Below, one piece after another: positions 5,412 to 39,806 of a DNA stretch of 61,356 nucleotides. A model generated the notes under the pieces. The model had not been told where the DNA came from and did not search any database. It saw nothing but the letters and a program-made list of their open reading frames with translations. The DNA lies in NCBI GenBank assembly GCA_944389655.1, contig CALXND010000002.1, forward strand, positions 1 to 61,356, read 5' to 3'. Numbering within the stretch: position 1 is the first letter of the stretch; the number at the start of each line of letters is the position of its first letter. The DNA is from an uncultured Clostridia bacterium (GTDB taxonomy: Bacteria > Bacillota > Clostridia > TANB77 > CAG-508). Made by a program: the position numbers and the translations under genes.

Positions 5412-5858
5412 TTACTCGCTAATTACCTCTACCTTTAGACCAGCAATAACTCCTTCAAATAGTTTAATAGAAACATTAAAACTTCCCAATGTTTTTATTG
5501 TTTCCTTAAGTTCTATTTTTTTCTTGTCTATTGCCATATTATATTGTTGTTGTAAATTTTCTGAAATTTCTTTAGAGGTAACTCCTCCAAATATTTTTCC
5601 GTTTTCACCTGCTTTTACCTTTATTTTAAGCATAATTCCTTTTATTTTTTTTGCAAGTTCCTCTGCTTTTTGTTTTTCAACATCTTTTTTATAACTTGCT
5701 GCTTCTTTTTTGTTGTTTAATTTTGCCATATTTTCATTGTTTGCTTCAACTGCTAATTTCTTAGGAAATAGATAGTTCCTAGCATAGCCATCAGATGCAT
5801 TTATTACTTCATCTTTTTTTCCTACACCTTTAATATTATCTAATAAGATTACTTTCAT
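5412..5858 (-). CDS. rplI: 50S ribosomal protein L9
   Basis: MKVILLDNIKGVGKKDEVINASDGYARNYLFPKKLA is the classical L9 N-terminus. 148 aa. Confidence 0.96.
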   Translation of the reverse strand: MKVILLDNIKGVGKKDEVINASDGYARNYLFPKKLAVEANNENMAKLNNKKEAASYKKDVEKQKAEELAKKIKGIMLKIKVKAGENGKIFGGVTSKEISENLQQQYNMAIDKKKIELKETIKTLGSFNVSIKLFEGVIAGLKVEVISE

Positions 5859-5890: not shown

Positions 5891-6120
5891 TGGGAACTTA
5901 GCTTTTTTGCACAAATACTATTTTGATTTTCAGTAAATTTATATATTTTTTATTTTTAGTCGGAGTGCTTAAGGTGGGGACCAGCAAGTTTACAAACTGT
6001 ATGCGAGATTATTTCGAGCATTTACAGTTTGTACGATGCCGGAGGCCGGAGACTAAAAAGAAAAAATATATAAATTTACTATAATAAAGATTAAACATTG
6101 CGCCAAAAAACTAAGGCACA
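5891..6120. repeat. Nested-palindrome intergenic element, copy 1 (about 230 bp); inverted copy at 39521-39768
   Basis: Three nested inverted-repeat layers: outer 5891-5914 / 6098-6120; middle gtaaatttatatattttttatttttagtc (5933-5961) / gactaaaaagaaaaaatatataaatttac (6051-6079); inner GC-rich arms ending acaaactgt / acagtttgt around a 23-nt loop (6001-6023). Confidence 0.85.
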
Positions 6121-8107
6121 TTAAATTTGTTCACTAAAATATTCATTAATTCTATTTATGAGCTCTTGCTTTGCTTCGTCTATATTCATTCCTTCTACTT
6201 GTGCTCCCGCTAAGGTAATATGACCGCCTCCTCCGCAGTTTTTCTAGTATTACTTGAACATTTATATCTCCTATCGAACGTCCACTTATGCATATTTTAT
6301 CATCTAATTTTCCTAATACAAATGATGCTGTAATATTGCTAATTGTAAGTAATTCGTCTGCTGCTTTAGCACAGACTACGTTTGCATCTTTGTCTTCTTC
6401 TTCGTATGTCGATATTGCTATACTATCATATACTAATTCTGCCTTTCCTATTATGTTTGATATTTTGTTATATGTGTCTAAATCGCTTTGGAACCATTTT
6501 TTTACTTTTATTATATCTACACCACATTTACGTAAGTATGCCGCTGCTTCAAATGTTCTAACCCCTGTTTTAAATGTAAATGTTTTTGTATCCATCATTA
6601 TTCCTGCATATAATGCTTCTGCTTCTATGTTTGTAAGTTCTACCTCCTGTTGAGTATATTCTACTAATTCTGTTACTAGCTCTGATGCAGATGAGGCATA
6701 TACTTCATGGAATGTAAGCATTGCATTTTCTATATAATCTGGACTTCTTCTATGATGATCTATTACTATTATTTTCTTTGCCTTTGCTAATAACTCTGGT
6801 GATTCCACATAGTTCTTTTTATTTGTATCTACTACAACTAATAATGTGTCGTCATCAATTTCGCTTTCAGCATCTTGTGGCTCTATTATTAAATTGCTAT
6901 AGTTTTCATCTTCTCCTAGTTCTTGTAAGAATACTGATAAATTATCACCCTTTGTATTTAGCACAATGTTTGCTTCTTTATTTAAAGTTTTAGCTATTCT
7001 ATATATTCCCATGCTTGCACCCATACAATCCATATCTGAATTGCTATGCCCCATTATCATTACTTTGCTTGATTCTTGTATTAGTCCTTCTAATGCATGT
7101 GATATAATTCTAGCTTTTACCTTTGTTCTTTTTTCTAGCTCTTGGGTTCTTCCTCCAAAGAATGTGTATTTTTCTCCTTCATGAATTACAGCTTGGTCTC
7201 CACCACGTCCTAGTACTATATCTAGTGCTGCTTGAGCTGTTTTATATTTTTCTAAATTTGTAGTTCCGTCATTAGATATAGCAATACTTAATGTAAATTG
7301 CATTCTGTCTGATGGTTGCAAATCCTTTACTGCATCTAATATGTCAAATTTTTTATCTTCTATTTCTTTTATATATTGTTTTTCAAAGATACACACAAAT
7401 GTATCTCTTTCTGCTTTTAGCATAAGCCCTTTTGCTTCTGCTGCCCAATCATATAAACTCTTTTCTATTTCTGCTATTAACTGTGGTTTTTCATCATCCG
7501 GTATTCTTTGTATTATTTCTTCATAATTGTCTATCATGATTAATCCGATGTATATGTCTTTATTATCAAATAGACTTTCTAGTTCTACTAGTTTTGTATC
7601 ATCTACAAAATATATTGTAATTATATATTCATCCTTTAAAGGCATATAATCTCCATATAATCTATATGTTTTTTTACCTATTTGAATTTCATCATTTATT
7701 TTTTCTTTTTTATCATTATTTTTTATTTCTAACTTTACATCGTTTAAAATATTTGTTAAATAATTATTAATATCAATATTGGCAAATTCTTGGTTAAATT
7801 TTGTGTTTCTAAATATTAGGTTTCCATTTGTTTCTGCAATTACTAATGGAAATGGTGAATTTACCAAAGCTATTTTTGCAATTTTATCTAAACTAAATGT
7901 TAAGTTTTTGATGTGTTCTGTAAGTTCTTCCTGTCTTTTATTATTTGTCCAATATGCGTACATTAATAGTAATATATATATAATCACTGATGGTACTATA
8001 AAGTATAGATTATATATACATATTACAATTAAAAGAATTGCAATGATTGCTAAATATATTTTTGTTTTTGATATTATTTTTTGCACCACTTTTTTATTAT
8101 GGTTCAT
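6121..8107 (-). pseudogene. gdpP: GdpP/YybT-like DHH-DHHA1 phosphodiesterase (c-di-AMP PDE architecture) interrupted by a 1-nt insertion near 6235
   Basis: Two N-terminal TM helices, DHH motifs (GHSNSDMDCMG, VIDHHRR). The called ORF ends in an aberrant tail ...EKLRRRRSYYLSGSTSRRNEYRRSKARAHK. Shifting +1 at CTG-C-GGA gives EKL-GGGGHITLAGAQVEGMNIDEAKQELINRINEYFSEQI* with its stop at 6121-6123, restoring the DHHA1 GGGH motif. Likely start is the ATG at 8107 (GGAGG 6 nt upstream). Confidence 0.85.
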
Positions 8108-13009: not shown

Positions 13010-13289
13010 AAAACACTTTTGTGCATTCATAAACGAAGCAAAAGTGTGTATATTGCTAGGCAAAATCCAAAAGAAAACCGGAGGCATGCTTTTTGCTATG
13101 CTAAAGGATTTTCTTTTAGATTTTAACGACGCAAGTAACTAGCCACATCCTTCTTTACTGTGCTGTAATTTTGAAAAGAATTGATTTTTGGCTAGGCGCT
13201 AGAATTAAAAATTTATGAGGTGTACTTTGTGTACATTGAATAAATTTTTAATTCGTAGCAACAACGCCAAAAACAATTATCTTCAAAAT
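13010..13289. other. Highly structured rpoB-rpoC intercistronic spacer (stacked long hairpins)
   Basis: The 420-nt gap (12869-13288) holds three hairpins. The first is about 122 nt with arms 13168-13192 / 13266-13289, starting at the rpoB stop codon. The second has arms aaaatccaaaagaaaa (13062-13077) / ttttcttttagatttt (13109-13124). The third is acacttttg...caaaagtgt (about 13013-13048). Confidence 0.7.
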
Positions 13290-16200
13290 TACTCTACTAT
13301 GTCGGAGTCATTCAAAAGATTATCCTCTCCCAAATCTGTATCTCCAAGCATTATCTCATCATCTGAAAATTCTTCAAATAGAGCCTCATCATCTTCTTGT
13401 TCTTCATCTGCTAAGACTGCTTCTTCTTCATATCCTTCTGGTAAGTCTTTCATTGCAAGAATATCATTTCCTGTCTTTTTATCATCTATATTAAAGTCTA
13501 TTCCATCATCTATATTTTCTTTCAATTCTAGTTCTTCATTATCTGGCGACAATAATCTTATATCTAACCCTAAAGCTTGAAGTTCTTTTATAAGTACTTT
13601 AAATCCTTCTGGAACTCCTGGTTCTGGAACATTTTCGCCTTTAACTATTGCTTCGTATGTTTTTACACGTCCTACTGTATCATCTGATTTTACAGTAAGC
13701 ATTTCTTGTAATGTGTAAGCTGCACCATATGCCTCTAGTGCCCAAACTTCCATCTCTCCAAAACGTTGTCCACCAAATTGTGCTTTACCTCCAAGAGGTT
13801 GTTGTGTAACTAATGAGTATGGTCCTGTTGAACGAGCATGTATCTTATCATCTACTAAGTGATGTAGTTTTAACATGTACATTACACCAACTGTTACTGG
13901 ATGATCAAATGGGTCTCCTGTTCTACCATCATATAGAGTTGTTTTTCCATCTTCTGAATATCCAGATTTTCTAAACAATTCTCTTATTTCTTCATCTGTT
14001 GCACCATCAAATACAGGTGTTGCAACTTTCCAGCCTAATAATTTTGCTGCCATTCCTAGGTGAACTTCTAGAACTTGACCTAAGTTCATACGAGAAGGAA
14101 CACCTAGTGGGTTTAAAACTATATCTACTGGAGTACCATCTGGCATAAATGGCATATCTTCTTCTGGTAATATTCTTGAAATAACACCTTTGTTACCATG
14201 ACGTCCAGCCATTTTATCACCAACTGATATTTTTCTTTTTTGAGCTATATAGCAACGAATTATTTGATTTACACCAGGTCCTAATTCATCAGAATTTTCT
14301 CTAGTAAATATTTTTACATCTACTATTGTACCTTGCTCACCATGTGGTACACGAAGTGAGGTGTCTCTAACTTCTCTTGCTTTTTCTCCAAATATTGCAC
14401 GAAGCAATCTTTCTTCTGCTGTAAGTTCTGTTTCTCCTTTTGGAGTAACTTTACCTACTAATATGTCTCCTGGTCTTACTTCTGCACCAATACGTATAAT
14501 ACCATTTTCATCTAAGTCTTTTAATACGTCATCACCAACATTTGGTATATCTCTTGTAATTTCTTCTGGGCCTAATTTTGTATCACGGCATTCACAATCA
14601 TATTCTTCAATGTGAATTGATGTGTACACATCTTCTTTAACGAGTCTTTCACTAATTAACACAGCGTCCTCGTAGTTGTAACCTTCCCATGTAGTAAATG
14701 CTATTAATACATTTCTACCAAGTGACATTTCTCCATTTTTCGTTGCTGGTCCATCTGCAAGAAGATCTCCTGCATTTACTTTTTCTCCACGAACAACTAC
14801 TGGTCTTTGGTTTATACATGTACCACCATTTGTTCTCTTGAATTTTCTTAATTTATATGTATCTATTCCGTCTTTATTATTTCTAACTAGAATTTCATCT
14901 CCAGTTACTTTTTCTACAACACCTGGATTTATAGCTGTAACTGTAATTCCTGAATCTTTTGCCGCTCTATATTCAATACCTGTACCTACTATTGGTGATT
15001 CTGGCATTAGCAGTGGAACTGCTTGACGTTGCATGTTAGCACCCATTAGTGAACGTTTTGCATCATCATGCTCTACGAATGGAATCATTGCTGCTGCAAC
15101 AGAAACAAGTTGTTTTGGAGATACGTCTACAAAGTCAACTCTGGATTTGTCTACCATTGTGATTTCTTCTCTCATTCTTACTTTAATTCTGTCATTTACA
15201 AATCTTCCTTCTTCATCTAATGGCTCTGATGCTTGTGCTATTATGTATTTATCCTCTTCATCTGCTGGCATGTATACAACTTCGTCGGTAACTTTCCCTG
15301 TTTCGTGATCCACCTTTCTATATGGTGTTTCTATAAATCCGTATTCATTAATTGTAGCAAATGATGAAAGTGCTGAGATAAGTCCAACGTTTGGACCTTC
15401 TGGTGACTCTATTGGACATAGTCTACCATAATGTGTATAGTGAATATCTCTAACCTCGAAACCTGCTCTTTCTCTAGAAAGTCCTCCAGGTCCTAATGCA
15501 GATATTCTTCTTTTATGGGTAAGCTCAGATAATGGGTTTGTTTGATCCATAAATTGTGACAATTGTGAGCTTCCAAAGAATTCTCTTATTGATGATGATA
15601 TTGGTTTTGTATTGATTAGTGTTTGTGGTGTTACTACGTCTAAATCTTGAATTGTCATTCTTTCACGTACAACTCTTTCAAGTCTCGTTAAACCAATTCT
15701 AAATTGGTTTTGTAGAAGCTCTCCAACACATCTAATACGTCTATTTCCTAAGTGGTCTATATCATCTATTACTCCTAGTCCATTGTCTAGGTTTAGTATA
15801 TAGTTTATAGATGCTATTATGTCCTCTGTTGTAATATGTCTAGGAACTAGTTCATCATATCTTTCTTTTATAACATCATGTAATTTTTCTTCTTCTGTGC
15901 TGTCTATAATTGATTTTAGCACATTGTAGTTTACATATTCTTTTATATGTACATCGCTTACATCTACATTTGGTAAGAATTTATGAATGTTAACTGTTCC
16001 ATTTCCTATTATCCTAACTTTTCTATCATCTACTTTAACATCTACAATATTAATACCAGAATTTTGTATATCCTCAGCTACTTGTTCAGATATTACATTG
16101 TCTTTTTCTACTAATACTTCTCCTGTTTCTGGGTCTACTATATCTTGAAAAGCAACTTTTCCTGTAATTCTTGCAGCTAGGCTTAATTTTTTATTAAATT

Positions 16201-26675: not shown

Positions 26676-26694
26676 TAATATTTCCAAAGGAATC

Positions 26695-26764
26695 TAGAAG
26701 TGGCTTAAACATATAATTAGTAAAATAATTACATATTTAAGCCACTTCTATTATACTATTTTTT
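26695..26764 (+). terminator. Stem-loop terminator after the repeat-protein gene
   Basis: tagaagtggcttaaa (26695-26709) / tttaagccacttcta (26736-26750), with a T-run at 26758-26764. Confidence 0.45.
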
Positions 26765-28850: not shown

Positions 28851-28866
28851 TTTTTCCTCCTACTAA

Positions 28867-28979
28867 TGCGCAATTGGGGACGGGCTTATTTTGCGCAAAT
28901 TCAACTTGATTTTTAAATGTAAATTTATATATTGAAAAAAACAATATTTGCGCAAAATAAGCCCGTCCCCAATTGCGCA
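28867..28979. repeat. Perfect 33-bp inverted repeat (short member of the TGCGCAATTGGGG palindrome family)
   Basis: tgcgcaattggggacgggcttattttgcgcaaa (28867-28899) is the exact reverse complement of 28947-28979. The 47-nt centre contains gtaaatttatatatt, shared with the 230-bp elements. Confidence 0.9.
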
Positions 28980-29016
28980 TTTTTAAAGGGAGGTGGCTAT
29001 CCATCTCCCTTAATCT

Positions 29017-36531: not shown

Positions 36532-36728
36532 AAGCCAGAGTTAATATATTCAAAATTTGTGAGAATATGGAATGGAAAGTGATTTGAAGATACTAATTCT
36601 TGAAAAATTTTTGTAGGGAATCTCACGCCTCGCCGTGAGGGCGCTACAAAAATTTTCTTAGAATTAGTTCAAAAATCAGCTTGACCGACATATTCGATAC
36701 AATATTTTGAATATATTAACTCTGGCTT
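36532..36728. repeat. 197-bp nested hairpin element with 25-bp perfect terminal inverted repeats and a GC-rich core
   Basis: aagccagagttaatatattcaaaat (36532-36556) is the exact reverse complement of 36704-36728. Inner arms ...actaattcttgaaaaatttttgtag / ctacaaaaattttcttagaattagt. Core ctcacg-cctcgc-cgtgag. Confidence 0.85.
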
Positions 36729-39520: not shown

Positions 39521-39806
39521 TGCGCAATTGGGACTTAGCTTTTTTACGCAAGTATAATTGTTTTTTAATTGTAAATTTATATATTTTTTCTTTTTAGTCT
39601 CCGGCCCCCAACATCGTACAAACTGTAATAATTCCACTAACGTGCAATTAACAGTTTGTAAACTTGTTGGTCCCCACCTTAAGCACTCCGACTAAAAAGA
39701 AAAAATATATAAATTTACTAAAAATTGAAATAGGATTTGCGCCAAAAAGCTAAGTTCCTAATTGTGCAAATAAAATACGCAAAAGAGAGTTTTTCTCAAT
39801 TGCGCA
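39521..39806. repeat. Nested-palindrome intergenic element, copy 2 (inverted relative to 5891-6120), with an extra outer CAATTGCGCA arm
   Basis: The reverse complement aligns with copy 1 over both stem sets (e.g. gtaaatttatatattttttctttttagtcggagtgcttaaggtggggaccaacaagtttacaaactgt). The central 24-nt loop (about 39626-39649) is unrelated to the copy-1 loop. Confidence 0.88.

Follow-up and report, generated by a model that had tools for sequence, protein, structure and literature searches.

The spacer between gdpP and rplI in a 61,356-nucleotide stretch of DNA from an uncultured Clostridia bacterium (contig CALXND010000002.1; the whole stretch is called the window below) contains a 230-bp nested palindrome at positions 5891–6120, and a second copy of it lies elsewhere in the window (Table 1). 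An initial annotation of the sequence described conserved stems around a completely different central loop, and the question raised by this locus is what kind of element keeps its scaffold while its centre is replaced. The palindromes are probably members of a clade-restricted, non-autonomous family of the MITE type (miniature inverted-repeat transposable elements), which carries a conserved module that folds as a single strand. The descriptive part of this conclusion, namely a MITE-type family with a strand-specific folded module and an exchangeable tip of the fold, termed P3, is well supported. The module may further be a structured RNA domain, for which the chances judged from the sequences are somewhat short of even.

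Inverted Copies and Family Size

When copy 1 is read on the plus strand and copy 2 on the minus strand, the two align end to end, including the asymmetric centre, through which this alignment is better than that of the two plus strands. The copies are inverted, as the initial annotation had proposed, and the three nested tiers of inverted repeats described there are found in both. The sole block that does not align is the segment of 23–24 nt between ACAAACTGT and ACAGTTTGT, which is ATGCGAGATTATTTCGAGCATTT in copy 1 and TAATTGCACGTTAGTGGAATTATT in copy 2, and the view that a conserved scaffold with a replaced centre is not the product of neutral decay is upheld. The innermost tier is GC-rich as described, but it is not a pair of simple arms; it is a conserved asymmetric core, which contains a wobble-rich helix and a 13×4 bubble. 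This core is a GC-rich island in a window with a G+C content of 29%. Scaffold motifs of 22–29 nt are confined within the window to these elements, and dinucleotide-preserving shuffles gave 0 matches.

One-genome-per-species bacterial assemblies were scanned with the 20-mer GGAGTGCTTAAGGTGGGGAC from the core, which matched more than 113 stretches in at least 15 species-level assemblies. Among the matches listed, all are metagenome-assembled genomes (MAGs) labelled uncultured Clostridia or Clostridium sp. from the gut, and the MAG ERR4968598_bin.23 alone has copies at no fewer than 30 loci. A gapped-pattern search gave 24 further copies on low-GC metagenome contigs, together with two chance matches in high-GC contigs. 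Annotated phages and plasmids contained no family match, and viral contigs contained no genuine one, the three 15-mer matches there being chance matches in high-GC contigs. The family is clade-restricted, in uncultured gut Clostridia, and totals more than 140 members, each about 225–250 bp long, intergenic and without a consistent open reading frame (ORF). The possibility that the two window copies are the whole family is thus contradicted by the members in other genomes and by a third copy in the window.

Fold and Covariation of the Module

The module is about 155 nt long, and on the G-rich GGAGUGC strand (the G strand) it folds as a rod composed of P1, P1a, a bubble, P2 and P3. P1 has about 28–30 AT-rich base pairs, whose sequence varies among subfamilies while complementarity within a copy is nearly always kept; 27 of its 28 pairs are changed on both sides in the family alignment. 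P1a is an invariant non-Watson–Crick helix, CUUAAGG/UUGGGGG, in which 5′-G(U)GC-UU-AA-GG pairs with UU-GG-GG-GCC-3′ through two U·G, two A·G and two G·U appositions, closed by two or three Watson–Crick pairs. Its register is set by three variants that are compensated at the outer pairs of the helix, GGAC/GUCC in L029, CGUC/GACG in L031 and GUC/GGC in L078, where the L-numbers are labels of the compared stretches that carry copies or related sites. The invariant 13×4 bubble places UGGGGACCRRCAA opposite the four nucleotides G-N-N-G. In P2, GU(UU)ACAAACUGU, which has a two-U bulge, pairs with ACAGUUUGUAC, and compensatory variants are found at 6 of the 11 pairs.

Core positions are identical in 101–111 of the 111 distinct copies on which conservation was counted, except for R at position 58. 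The 20-mer used in the scan is conserved by ascertainment; copies recovered through the 3′ half have the same 5′ core, where variation is limited to the first five nucleotides. In the covariance-model alignment of 117 copies, standard pairs make up 98% of the pair cells, and 39 of 51 pairs are changed on both sides. The covariation score of 0.464 compares with 0.127 for shuffled alignments, none of 500 reaching the observed value, and with about 0.06 for slid partners. RNAalifold, which was applied independently, gave 35 compensated pairs out of 49. These results support the fold and indicate that the stems are kept by compensatory change. The energy of the consensus inner domain is −26.7 kcal/mol on the G strand and −17.6 kcal/mol on its complement.

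In about 10% of the copies, UU is changed to CC and G to A, which converts wobble pairs to Watson–Crick pairs. Copy 1 of the window is partly of this kind, its P1a 3′ strand having CC and A in place of the UU and G of most copies. As a separate observation, CCGAC of the bubble (5975–5987) can pair with GUUGG of the 3′ core (6038–6042) in competition with P1a, and this pairing is also present in the family consensus; the AGC/CC combination of copy 1 is compatible with both arrangements. The two exclusive pairings of the 3′ UUGG segment may, in this model, represent a switch or a coincidence.

In the search against Rfam 15 at the gathering threshold, the window gave 0 matches and seven related loci gave only one partial tRNA, so that the structured RNA considered in the initial annotation corresponds to no known family at gathering score. 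At E values up to 10, the same sequences matched only spurious plant microRNA-precursor hairpin models, on the AT-rich stem, and a tRNA/tmRNA scan found none. A small ORF in the core, where GGAG-N8-GUG opens a 9-codon frame, was rejected because its variants are non-synonymous and frame-breaking.

Strand Specificity and Orientation

The two strands of the module are not equivalent. P1, with 31 G·U and 30 A·C cells, is without a strand signature; P2 and P3 together have 22 G·U and 2 A·C cells; and P1a has 410 G·U cells and 0 A·C cells, its four conserved G·U pairs changing to G-C or U-A in minority variants. An alignment-free comparison of 69 distinct P3 hairpins gave greater stability on the G strand for 64 of them, by a mean of 2.5 kcal/mol (p = 1.6e-12), and G is twice as frequent as C in P3. 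For the window copies, the covariance model scores the folding strand about 110 bits above the other strand. The asymmetry between wobble and A·C cells and the stability of P3 indicate that the inner domain has been selected as a single strand of defined polarity.

The orientation of the copies relative to genes was counted after orthologues had been collapsed to 94 independent loci. The G strand is antisense to tandem genes at 51 loci and sense to them at 15, and 14 loci each lie between convergent and divergent genes. The tandem-context bias, roughly 3:1 (p = 1e-5), is seen with each type of shell. Insertion of a symmetric shell should not favour either orientation, so the bias suggests that the asymmetric core is under strand-specific selection, and the active fold would mostly be kept off the sense strand of operon transcripts.

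The same asymmetry can be explained at the level of DNA, if the fold matters as single-stranded DNA, where the G-strand hairpin would form in replication or transposition and could, for instance, be recognised by the mobilising enzyme or by a factor of host replication or repair. Deletion of asymmetric palindromes is favoured when the more stable hairpin lies on the lagging-strand template, and the bias would then result from more frequent deletion of the more stable G-strand hairpin on that template. The strand-neutral P1 is as expected of a DNA palindrome, and hairpin-spanning deletions between short direct repeats do occur (L070 compared with L027, and the third window copy). On the other hand, genes are mostly co-oriented with replication, so that the G strand is usually the leading-strand template and rarely single-stranded, which makes a positive function hard to picture; GC skew tracks the coding strand and could not separate the direction of replication from that of transcription. 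Palindromy that extends into unique flanks (L071 and type I copies) suggests template-switch "perfection" of the palindrome, and GCGAAGC is found among the short P3 variants. However, cruciform extrusion is made unlikely by the 13×4 bubble and the six-pair non-Watson–Crick helix, and the 8-bp duplications described below indicate a double-strand DDE mechanism that needs only the termini. The explanation by single-stranded DNA is judged unlikely on this balance.

Gene context also bears on the possibility that the element mainly terminates transcription or punctuates mRNA as a hairpin, in the manner of REP, SPRITE or Correia elements and in either orientation. The centre of a copy lies about 115–120 nt from the upstream stop, compared with 190–220 nt from the next start. 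The type I outer arms AAAAGGGGACGGGC...GCCCGUCCCCUUUU resemble a terminator stem with A and U tracts, split by an insert of about 200 nt, and the insertion seen in L071 compared with L114 lies in the loop of a terminator-like hairpin. However, P1 is AU-rich without a U tail, and the terminator scan of the window found nothing at either full copy. The divergent and convergent shares, 14 of 94 each, are close to a random-placement prior of about 70/15/15, which is crude and assumed. A bidirectional role would leave both the invariant asymmetric core and the orientation bias unexplained, and we regard a terminator as quite improbable.

Exchange of the Apical Hairpin

The "loop" of the initial annotation is P3, an apical hairpin of variable sequence that caps the rod. 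It is laid out as a stem, a purine–purine internal loop (mostly tandem G·A), a covarying stem of 2–3 bp and a small loop. Its length is 14 nt or 22–26 nt, and rarely 64–130 nt through insertions; the P3 site in other copies tolerates insertions of 40–130 nt. Typical forms are AAAC-GAA-AC-GUAA-GU-GAA-GUUU, AAC-GA-CAC-UUUA-GUG-GA-GUU, AUGC-GA-AAU-GUA-AUU-GA-GCAU and the short AAAC-GAA-GUUU, and P3 of copies 1 and 2 fits two of the typical classes.

The 93 parsed copies fall into about 25 P3 classes and 29 clusters of P1 arms, which are freely combined: 8 P3 classes occur in the largest P1 cluster (25 copies), and 9 P1 clusters share the largest P3 class (26 copies). Copies at unrelated loci, and copies in different species, have P3 classes in common in identical form. 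At one locus shared by L122 and L022, with flanks of 97–99% identity and matching arms, the P3 classes differ. The swapped P3 would be explained most simply by short-patch recombination between copies, in which the invariant 39-nt and 27-nt flanks of P3 provide the homology, and the hybrid elements with unmatched left and right halves (L120, L003 and L007) support recombination between copies. The element is therefore "cassette-bearing", as the initial annotation put it, only in the sense that P3 variants are shuffled by recombination across invariant flanks.

A conserved scaffold with a replaced 23-nt centre is also what a programmable guide loop of the bridge-RNA, omega-RNA or crRNA type would look like. 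Alternatively, the functional strand could be the C-rich complement, whose CCCC loops would pair with ribosome-binding sites; this C strand would expose CCCCCAAC and GGUCCCCACCUUAAG and be co-transcribed with the neighbouring genes in about 75% of cases. P3 is internally paired, however, and its identical recurrence at unrelated loci and in different species is contrary to a guide. A second match or a complementary site for the P3 sequences is absent from the window and from 2.9 million viral contigs, and no IS110, TnpB or Cas gene lies beside 115 copies. As for the complement, the wobble and G·A statistics assign the selected fold to the G strand, and in about 10% of the copies Watson–Crick pairs close the would-be C-rich loop. 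Both forms of this explanation are largely refuted and appear very improbable. What stands of the structured RNA with a guide-like loop in the initial annotation is the single-strand fold signature with its compensated stems, and what falls is the guide loop, since P3 is paired, recurrent and without a target match in the window or in viral contigs.

Several observations concern the centre of individual elements. At L003:1960–2250 and L007:480–770, which come from two samples, another distal half follows the rplI-proximal half of copy 1 from the P3/P2 boundary on, and response-regulator and histidine-kinase genes come next. This junction may reflect a genuine rearrangement between copies or an error of assembly; beside gdpP, no reciprocal product was seen, and the parental locus is not among the stretches compared. 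A 130-nt insertion after P3 at L122:2800–2945 is rich in small GC hairpins and gave no significant Rfam match (best, a 23S-methyl motif, E = 0.28). At L107:1094–1305, L058:2061–2300 and L114:1072–1200, the P2 5′ strand and P3 have given way, right after GTTTAC, to a second repeat, GAGAAGTGAGATATGTGATGTGGGATGTGAAAG..., which disrupts the copies.

Mobility of the Elements

The same module is found in two outer shells, type I and type II, and the window copies are of type I. Type II elements end in the terminal inverted repeats GTTACAATTCACAG and CTGTGAATTGTAAC. Their 8-bp flanks agree at 6 or more of the 8 bases in 21 of 46 copies, against an expectation of 1.8, and in seven the duplication is perfect over 8 bp. 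Duplications of 8 bp at the target are a hallmark of insertion by a DDE transposase. From their terminal inverted repeats and 8-bp duplications, the type II elements appear to be true MITEs. Type I elements have outer repeats such as GCAAAAGGGGACGGGC and (T)nGCAAAAGGGGACGGGCTTGTTTTGCAAAAA, and their palindromy runs on into the flanks.

Filled and empty sites were found in three comparisons: L046 with the window at about 20876, L071 with L114, where the insertion lies inside the loop of a pre-existing terminator-like hairpin, and L027 with L065. Loss of the core is seen in L070 compared with L027, where a deletion between ATTTTA direct repeats produced a core-less derivative of the same kind as the third window copy. 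The copies would have spread in trans through a DDE-type transposase encoded elsewhere. The copies, the filled and empty sites and the type II termini with their duplications bear out the suggestion of the initial annotation that the palindromes are a MITE-like multi-copy repeat mobilised in trans.

No pair of type II termini 0.5–3 kb apart and no core halves separated by a gene were found. When 773 neighbouring ORFs were compared all against all, the result was just ordinary families of paralogues, presumably transporters and two-component systems from their size and membership, plus spurious ORFs across the element, with no transposase-like or effector-like paralogue recurring beside the copies. 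The absence of transposases was checked just for genes beside family members and for a few window genes.

Constraint in Orthologous Copies

Thirteen pairs of orthologous copies from different species were compared. The largely coding flanks are 91.7% identical, and the outer layer, at 89–95%, changes at about the rate of the flanks. The identity is 98% in P1, 100% in the 5′ core, 99.4% in the 3′ core and 97% in P3. This indicates that the module has been in place since speciation, with roughly a sixth of the change seen around it. The least conserved sequences are the termini and outer layer, although a transposase would need the termini.

These values have to be weighed against an ordinary selfish palindromic MITE with a functionless core, whose uniformity would come from recent master-copy bursts and gene conversion and whose stems would come from palindrome correction at the DNA level. 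Many copies across loci and species do have identical arms, and the exchange of P3 shows conversion between copies, to which the hybrids L120, L003 and L007 can be added. Conversion nevertheless seems a weak explanation of the core invariance across 29 arm subfamilies, because the invariant blocks are just 39 and 27 nt long; judging by the minimal homology that conversion is known to require, it would be unable to keep the interiors of such short blocks uniform. The core is the same across these diverged P1 subfamilies in at least 15 species, whereas the arms differ at most positions. The persistence of core-less derivatives is consistent with a selfish element, as is the result that scans of the neighbours and of Rfam found no associated protein or known RNA family. 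A DDE-mobilised MITE needs just its termini, yet conservation is lowest there, and orthologous copies changed less than largely coding sequence. In addition, the strand-specific wobble and G·A signature and the orientation bias need a strand-specific selective agent. A functionless core is accordingly given a low probability.

Level of Selection on the Module

GC-rich islands in AT-rich genomes often mark structured RNAs. Function at the RNA level is rated most likely for the module because of its GC-rich island, the conserved wobble and G·A pairs, the peripheral hairpin that tolerates insertions, and the selection on orientation. Transcription of the G strand would produce the RNA module, which would serve as a signal for protein binding or processing. 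It is also possible, though doubtful, that the core of about 90 nt is a new class of functional structured RNA spread by MITEs, which could be protein-sequestering, processing, self-cleaving, or switched by a ligand or protein. In that case, activity of the fold in transcripts would be the reason for selection on its orientation relative to genes.

Several points weigh against a mobile family with a module selected for its single-strand fold, and in particular against its function as RNA. G·T and G·A mismatches are well tolerated in single-stranded DNA, and GCGAAGC is a classic DNA mini-hairpin. P1, which has no strand signature, could equally be kept in duplex DNA. Read-through in three quarters of the tandem contexts would yield the complementary strand and not the folding one, and promoter and terminator scans of the window found no G-strand-specific promoter or terminator. 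In the type I consensus, the boxes TTGCAA-N17-TATAGT are arranged symmetrically, and in the window they do not exceed chance expectation. Conservation may moreover be overestimated as a result of frequent exchange among copies. With regard to mobility, neither an autonomous partner nor a transposase was identified in the neighbourhood of 115 copies, which amounts to 860 kb, and no target duplication was found at 25 type I copies or at the three window copies, where the palindrome simply extends outward. The target-site duplications and empty sites that the initial annotation proposed to look for were thus obtained in part, as duplications of type II elements and as filled and empty sites.

A promoter-like sequence, TTGGCG-N17-TATAGT, is present at 6078–6106 (−) in the outer part of copy 1, pointing through the element to rplI. 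It is not above chance, and the box pair is present on both sides in the type I consensus.

Copies in the Window and Neighboring Repeats

A search of the window with the covariance model, for which 87 copies were used, detects exactly two full copies and also the third member (Table 1). Copy 1 scores 144 bits on the plus strand and 38 on the minus strand (region 5927–6085), and copy 2 scores 154 bits on the minus strand and 35 on the plus strand (region 39565–39724). The context of copy 1 between gdpP and rplI was correctly described from the start. In copy 2, the folding strand has the same sense as both flanking genes.

Table 1. Positions of the family members, their parts and the genes beside copy 1 in the window.
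Feature	Position	Strand	Remarks
Copy 1, whole element	5891–6120	+	gdpP–rplI spacer; folding G-rich strand antisense to both neighbours
Copy 1, outer left arm GGAACTTAGCTTTTTTGCACAA	5893–5914	+	imperfect pairing with 6098–6119
Copy 1, P1 5′ arm, 29 nt	5933–5961	+	partner 6051–6079
Copy 1, conserved 5′ core GGAGTGCTTAAGGTGGGGACCAGCAAG	5962–5988	+	
Copy 1, P1a 5′ strand	5965–5974	+	
Copy 1, bubble UGGGGACCAGCAA	5975–5987	+	
Copy 1, P2 5′ strand TTTACAAACTGT	5989–6000	+	partner 6024–6034; two T bulged
Copy 1, P3 apical hairpin	6001–6023	+	AUGC-GA-GA-UUAUU-UC-GA-GCAU
Copy 1, P2 3′ strand and 3′ core ACAGTTTGTACGATGCCGGAGGCCGGA	6024–6050	+	
Copy 1, P1 3′ arm	6051–6079	+	
Copy 2, whole element	39521–39768	−	between 1741-aa surface-protein gene and spoIIE
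Copy 2, P1 arms	39571–39599 and 39690–39718	−	
Copy 2, core	39600–39689	−	
Copy 2, P3	39627–39650	−	UAAUU-G-CAC-GUUA-GUG-GA-AUUA
Third member, internally deleted, core-less	28864–28982	unassigned	covariance-model hairpin-only match
gdpP	6152–8107	−	stop codon at 6152–6154 (ORF table, called genes)
rplI	5412–5858	−	other flank of copy 1

The outer left arm of copy 1 is a degenerate form of the type I outer repeat GGGGACGGGCTTnTTTTGCnCAA. Its P3 belongs to the class UAUGCGAAAUGUAAUUGAGCAUUU, which is also carried by L072 and L112. The middle arms of copy 2 are a perfect 29-nt inverted repeat. The third member lies between a G5-domain gene and an Exo_endo_phos gene and retains the first 15 nt of the P1 5′ arm, GTAAATTTATATATT. 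Its outer inverted repeat, AATGCGCAATTGGGGACGGGCTTATTTTGCGCAAAT, is perfect over 36 nt, whereas the outer arms of the full copies are far less perfect.

The gdpP–rplI spacer of another species (L068:4880–5010) contains a different nested palindrome, whose centre CAGCGTACACAGAGTACGCTTCCGG is also present in L064 and L100, and from these sequences the site seems to attract palindromic insertions. Unrelated palindromes are found in the window at 36532–36728, with the GC-rich centre GGAATCTCACGCCTCGCCGTGAGGGCGC, at 13159–13298 and at 26691–26754, the first two of which are nested. The arms of the first two recur in L003 and L100, which indicates that there are several such repeat families in these genomes. 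Some contigs end inside the element (L006, L008 and L128–L130); the family breaks short-read assemblies of these gut Clostridia, and it may mediate rearrangements between copies.

Comparison with Known Systems

A limited literature search found no description of the family, and the core sequence was not present in the text searched. It was also absent from the first 200 of the 408 supplementary files of a structured-RNA survey of the human microbiome (PMC8040213).

Should the core be a functional RNA, the family would clearly exemplify, in bacteria, a structured RNA that transposon-like shells have carried to dozens of loci and that purifying selection has then maintained, which would be a route for regulatory or processing signals to spread through a genome. 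If the core is inert, the family is an ordinary, though well-characterised, new MITE family. In either case, the symmetric shell with its asymmetric core is a natural experiment that could separate DNA-level from RNA-level selection on palindromic repeats.

Among structured RNAs, the module resembles 6S RNA as a rod with a central bubble, and it resembles Rfam structured RNAs in general as a GC-rich island in an AT-rich genome with a peripheral hairpin of variable length. None of these families, 6S, RAGATH, HEARO and self-cleaving ribozymes included, gave it a gathering-score match in the window or at the seven related loci.

With REP/RAYT elements and the PATEs of IS200/IS605, the family shares the hairpin-forming, multi-copy, intergenic, orientation-biased character and mobilisation in trans. 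In PATEs, hairpins lie subterminally at two dissimilar ends, and no target duplication is left. The PATE candidate was rejected because the ends of the family are mutually inverted, not unlike each other, type II elements have 8-bp duplications, and no Y1 transposase was seen near the copies. REPs are imperfect palindromes of 20–40 nt with a GTAG or CGTC tag (PMC3733652). The REP candidate was likewise rejected, as elements of 225–250 bp with terminal inverted repeats are too long and differ in architecture from a short palindrome with a 5′ tetranucleotide; this part of the initial annotation is not sustained.

The nearest kinds are the structured intergenic repeats of Firmicutes and proteobacteria, namely bcr1, Correia and BIME. 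Correia elements (CREE/NEMIS) of Neisseria and BIMEs of E. coli contain an IHF site, and Correia elements also contain promoters (PMC3184786). Correia and BIME/RIP elements affect or join transcripts. Like them, the present family is a small intergenic palindrome with a conserved internal site between inverted arms. In contrast to Correia elements, which are 104–157 bp long with a TA duplication and a protein-binding site in duplex DNA, the centre of the family shows base-pair covariation and a strand-specific signature.

The bcr1 (group A bcr) repeats of the Bacillus cereus group are intergenic Firmicute repeats of about 155 bp with 5-bp duplications, which are transcribed and show compensatory changes (PMC3184786). 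The family resembles them as an intergenic Firmicute repeat with short direct-repeat flanks, a distribution not conserved between relatives and a predicted RNA-level fold with compensation. There is no sequence similarity between the two, and bcr1 is transcribed, whereas the present family is known here from its sequence. The fold of bcr1 is a cruciform-like one of two hairpins with variable stability, whereas the family forms a single long rod, with 8-bp duplications in type II and an invariant GC-rich core in two shells. What is new relative to these known systems is the invariant, asymmetric, covariation-supported core shared by two shells, together with its strong orientation bias.

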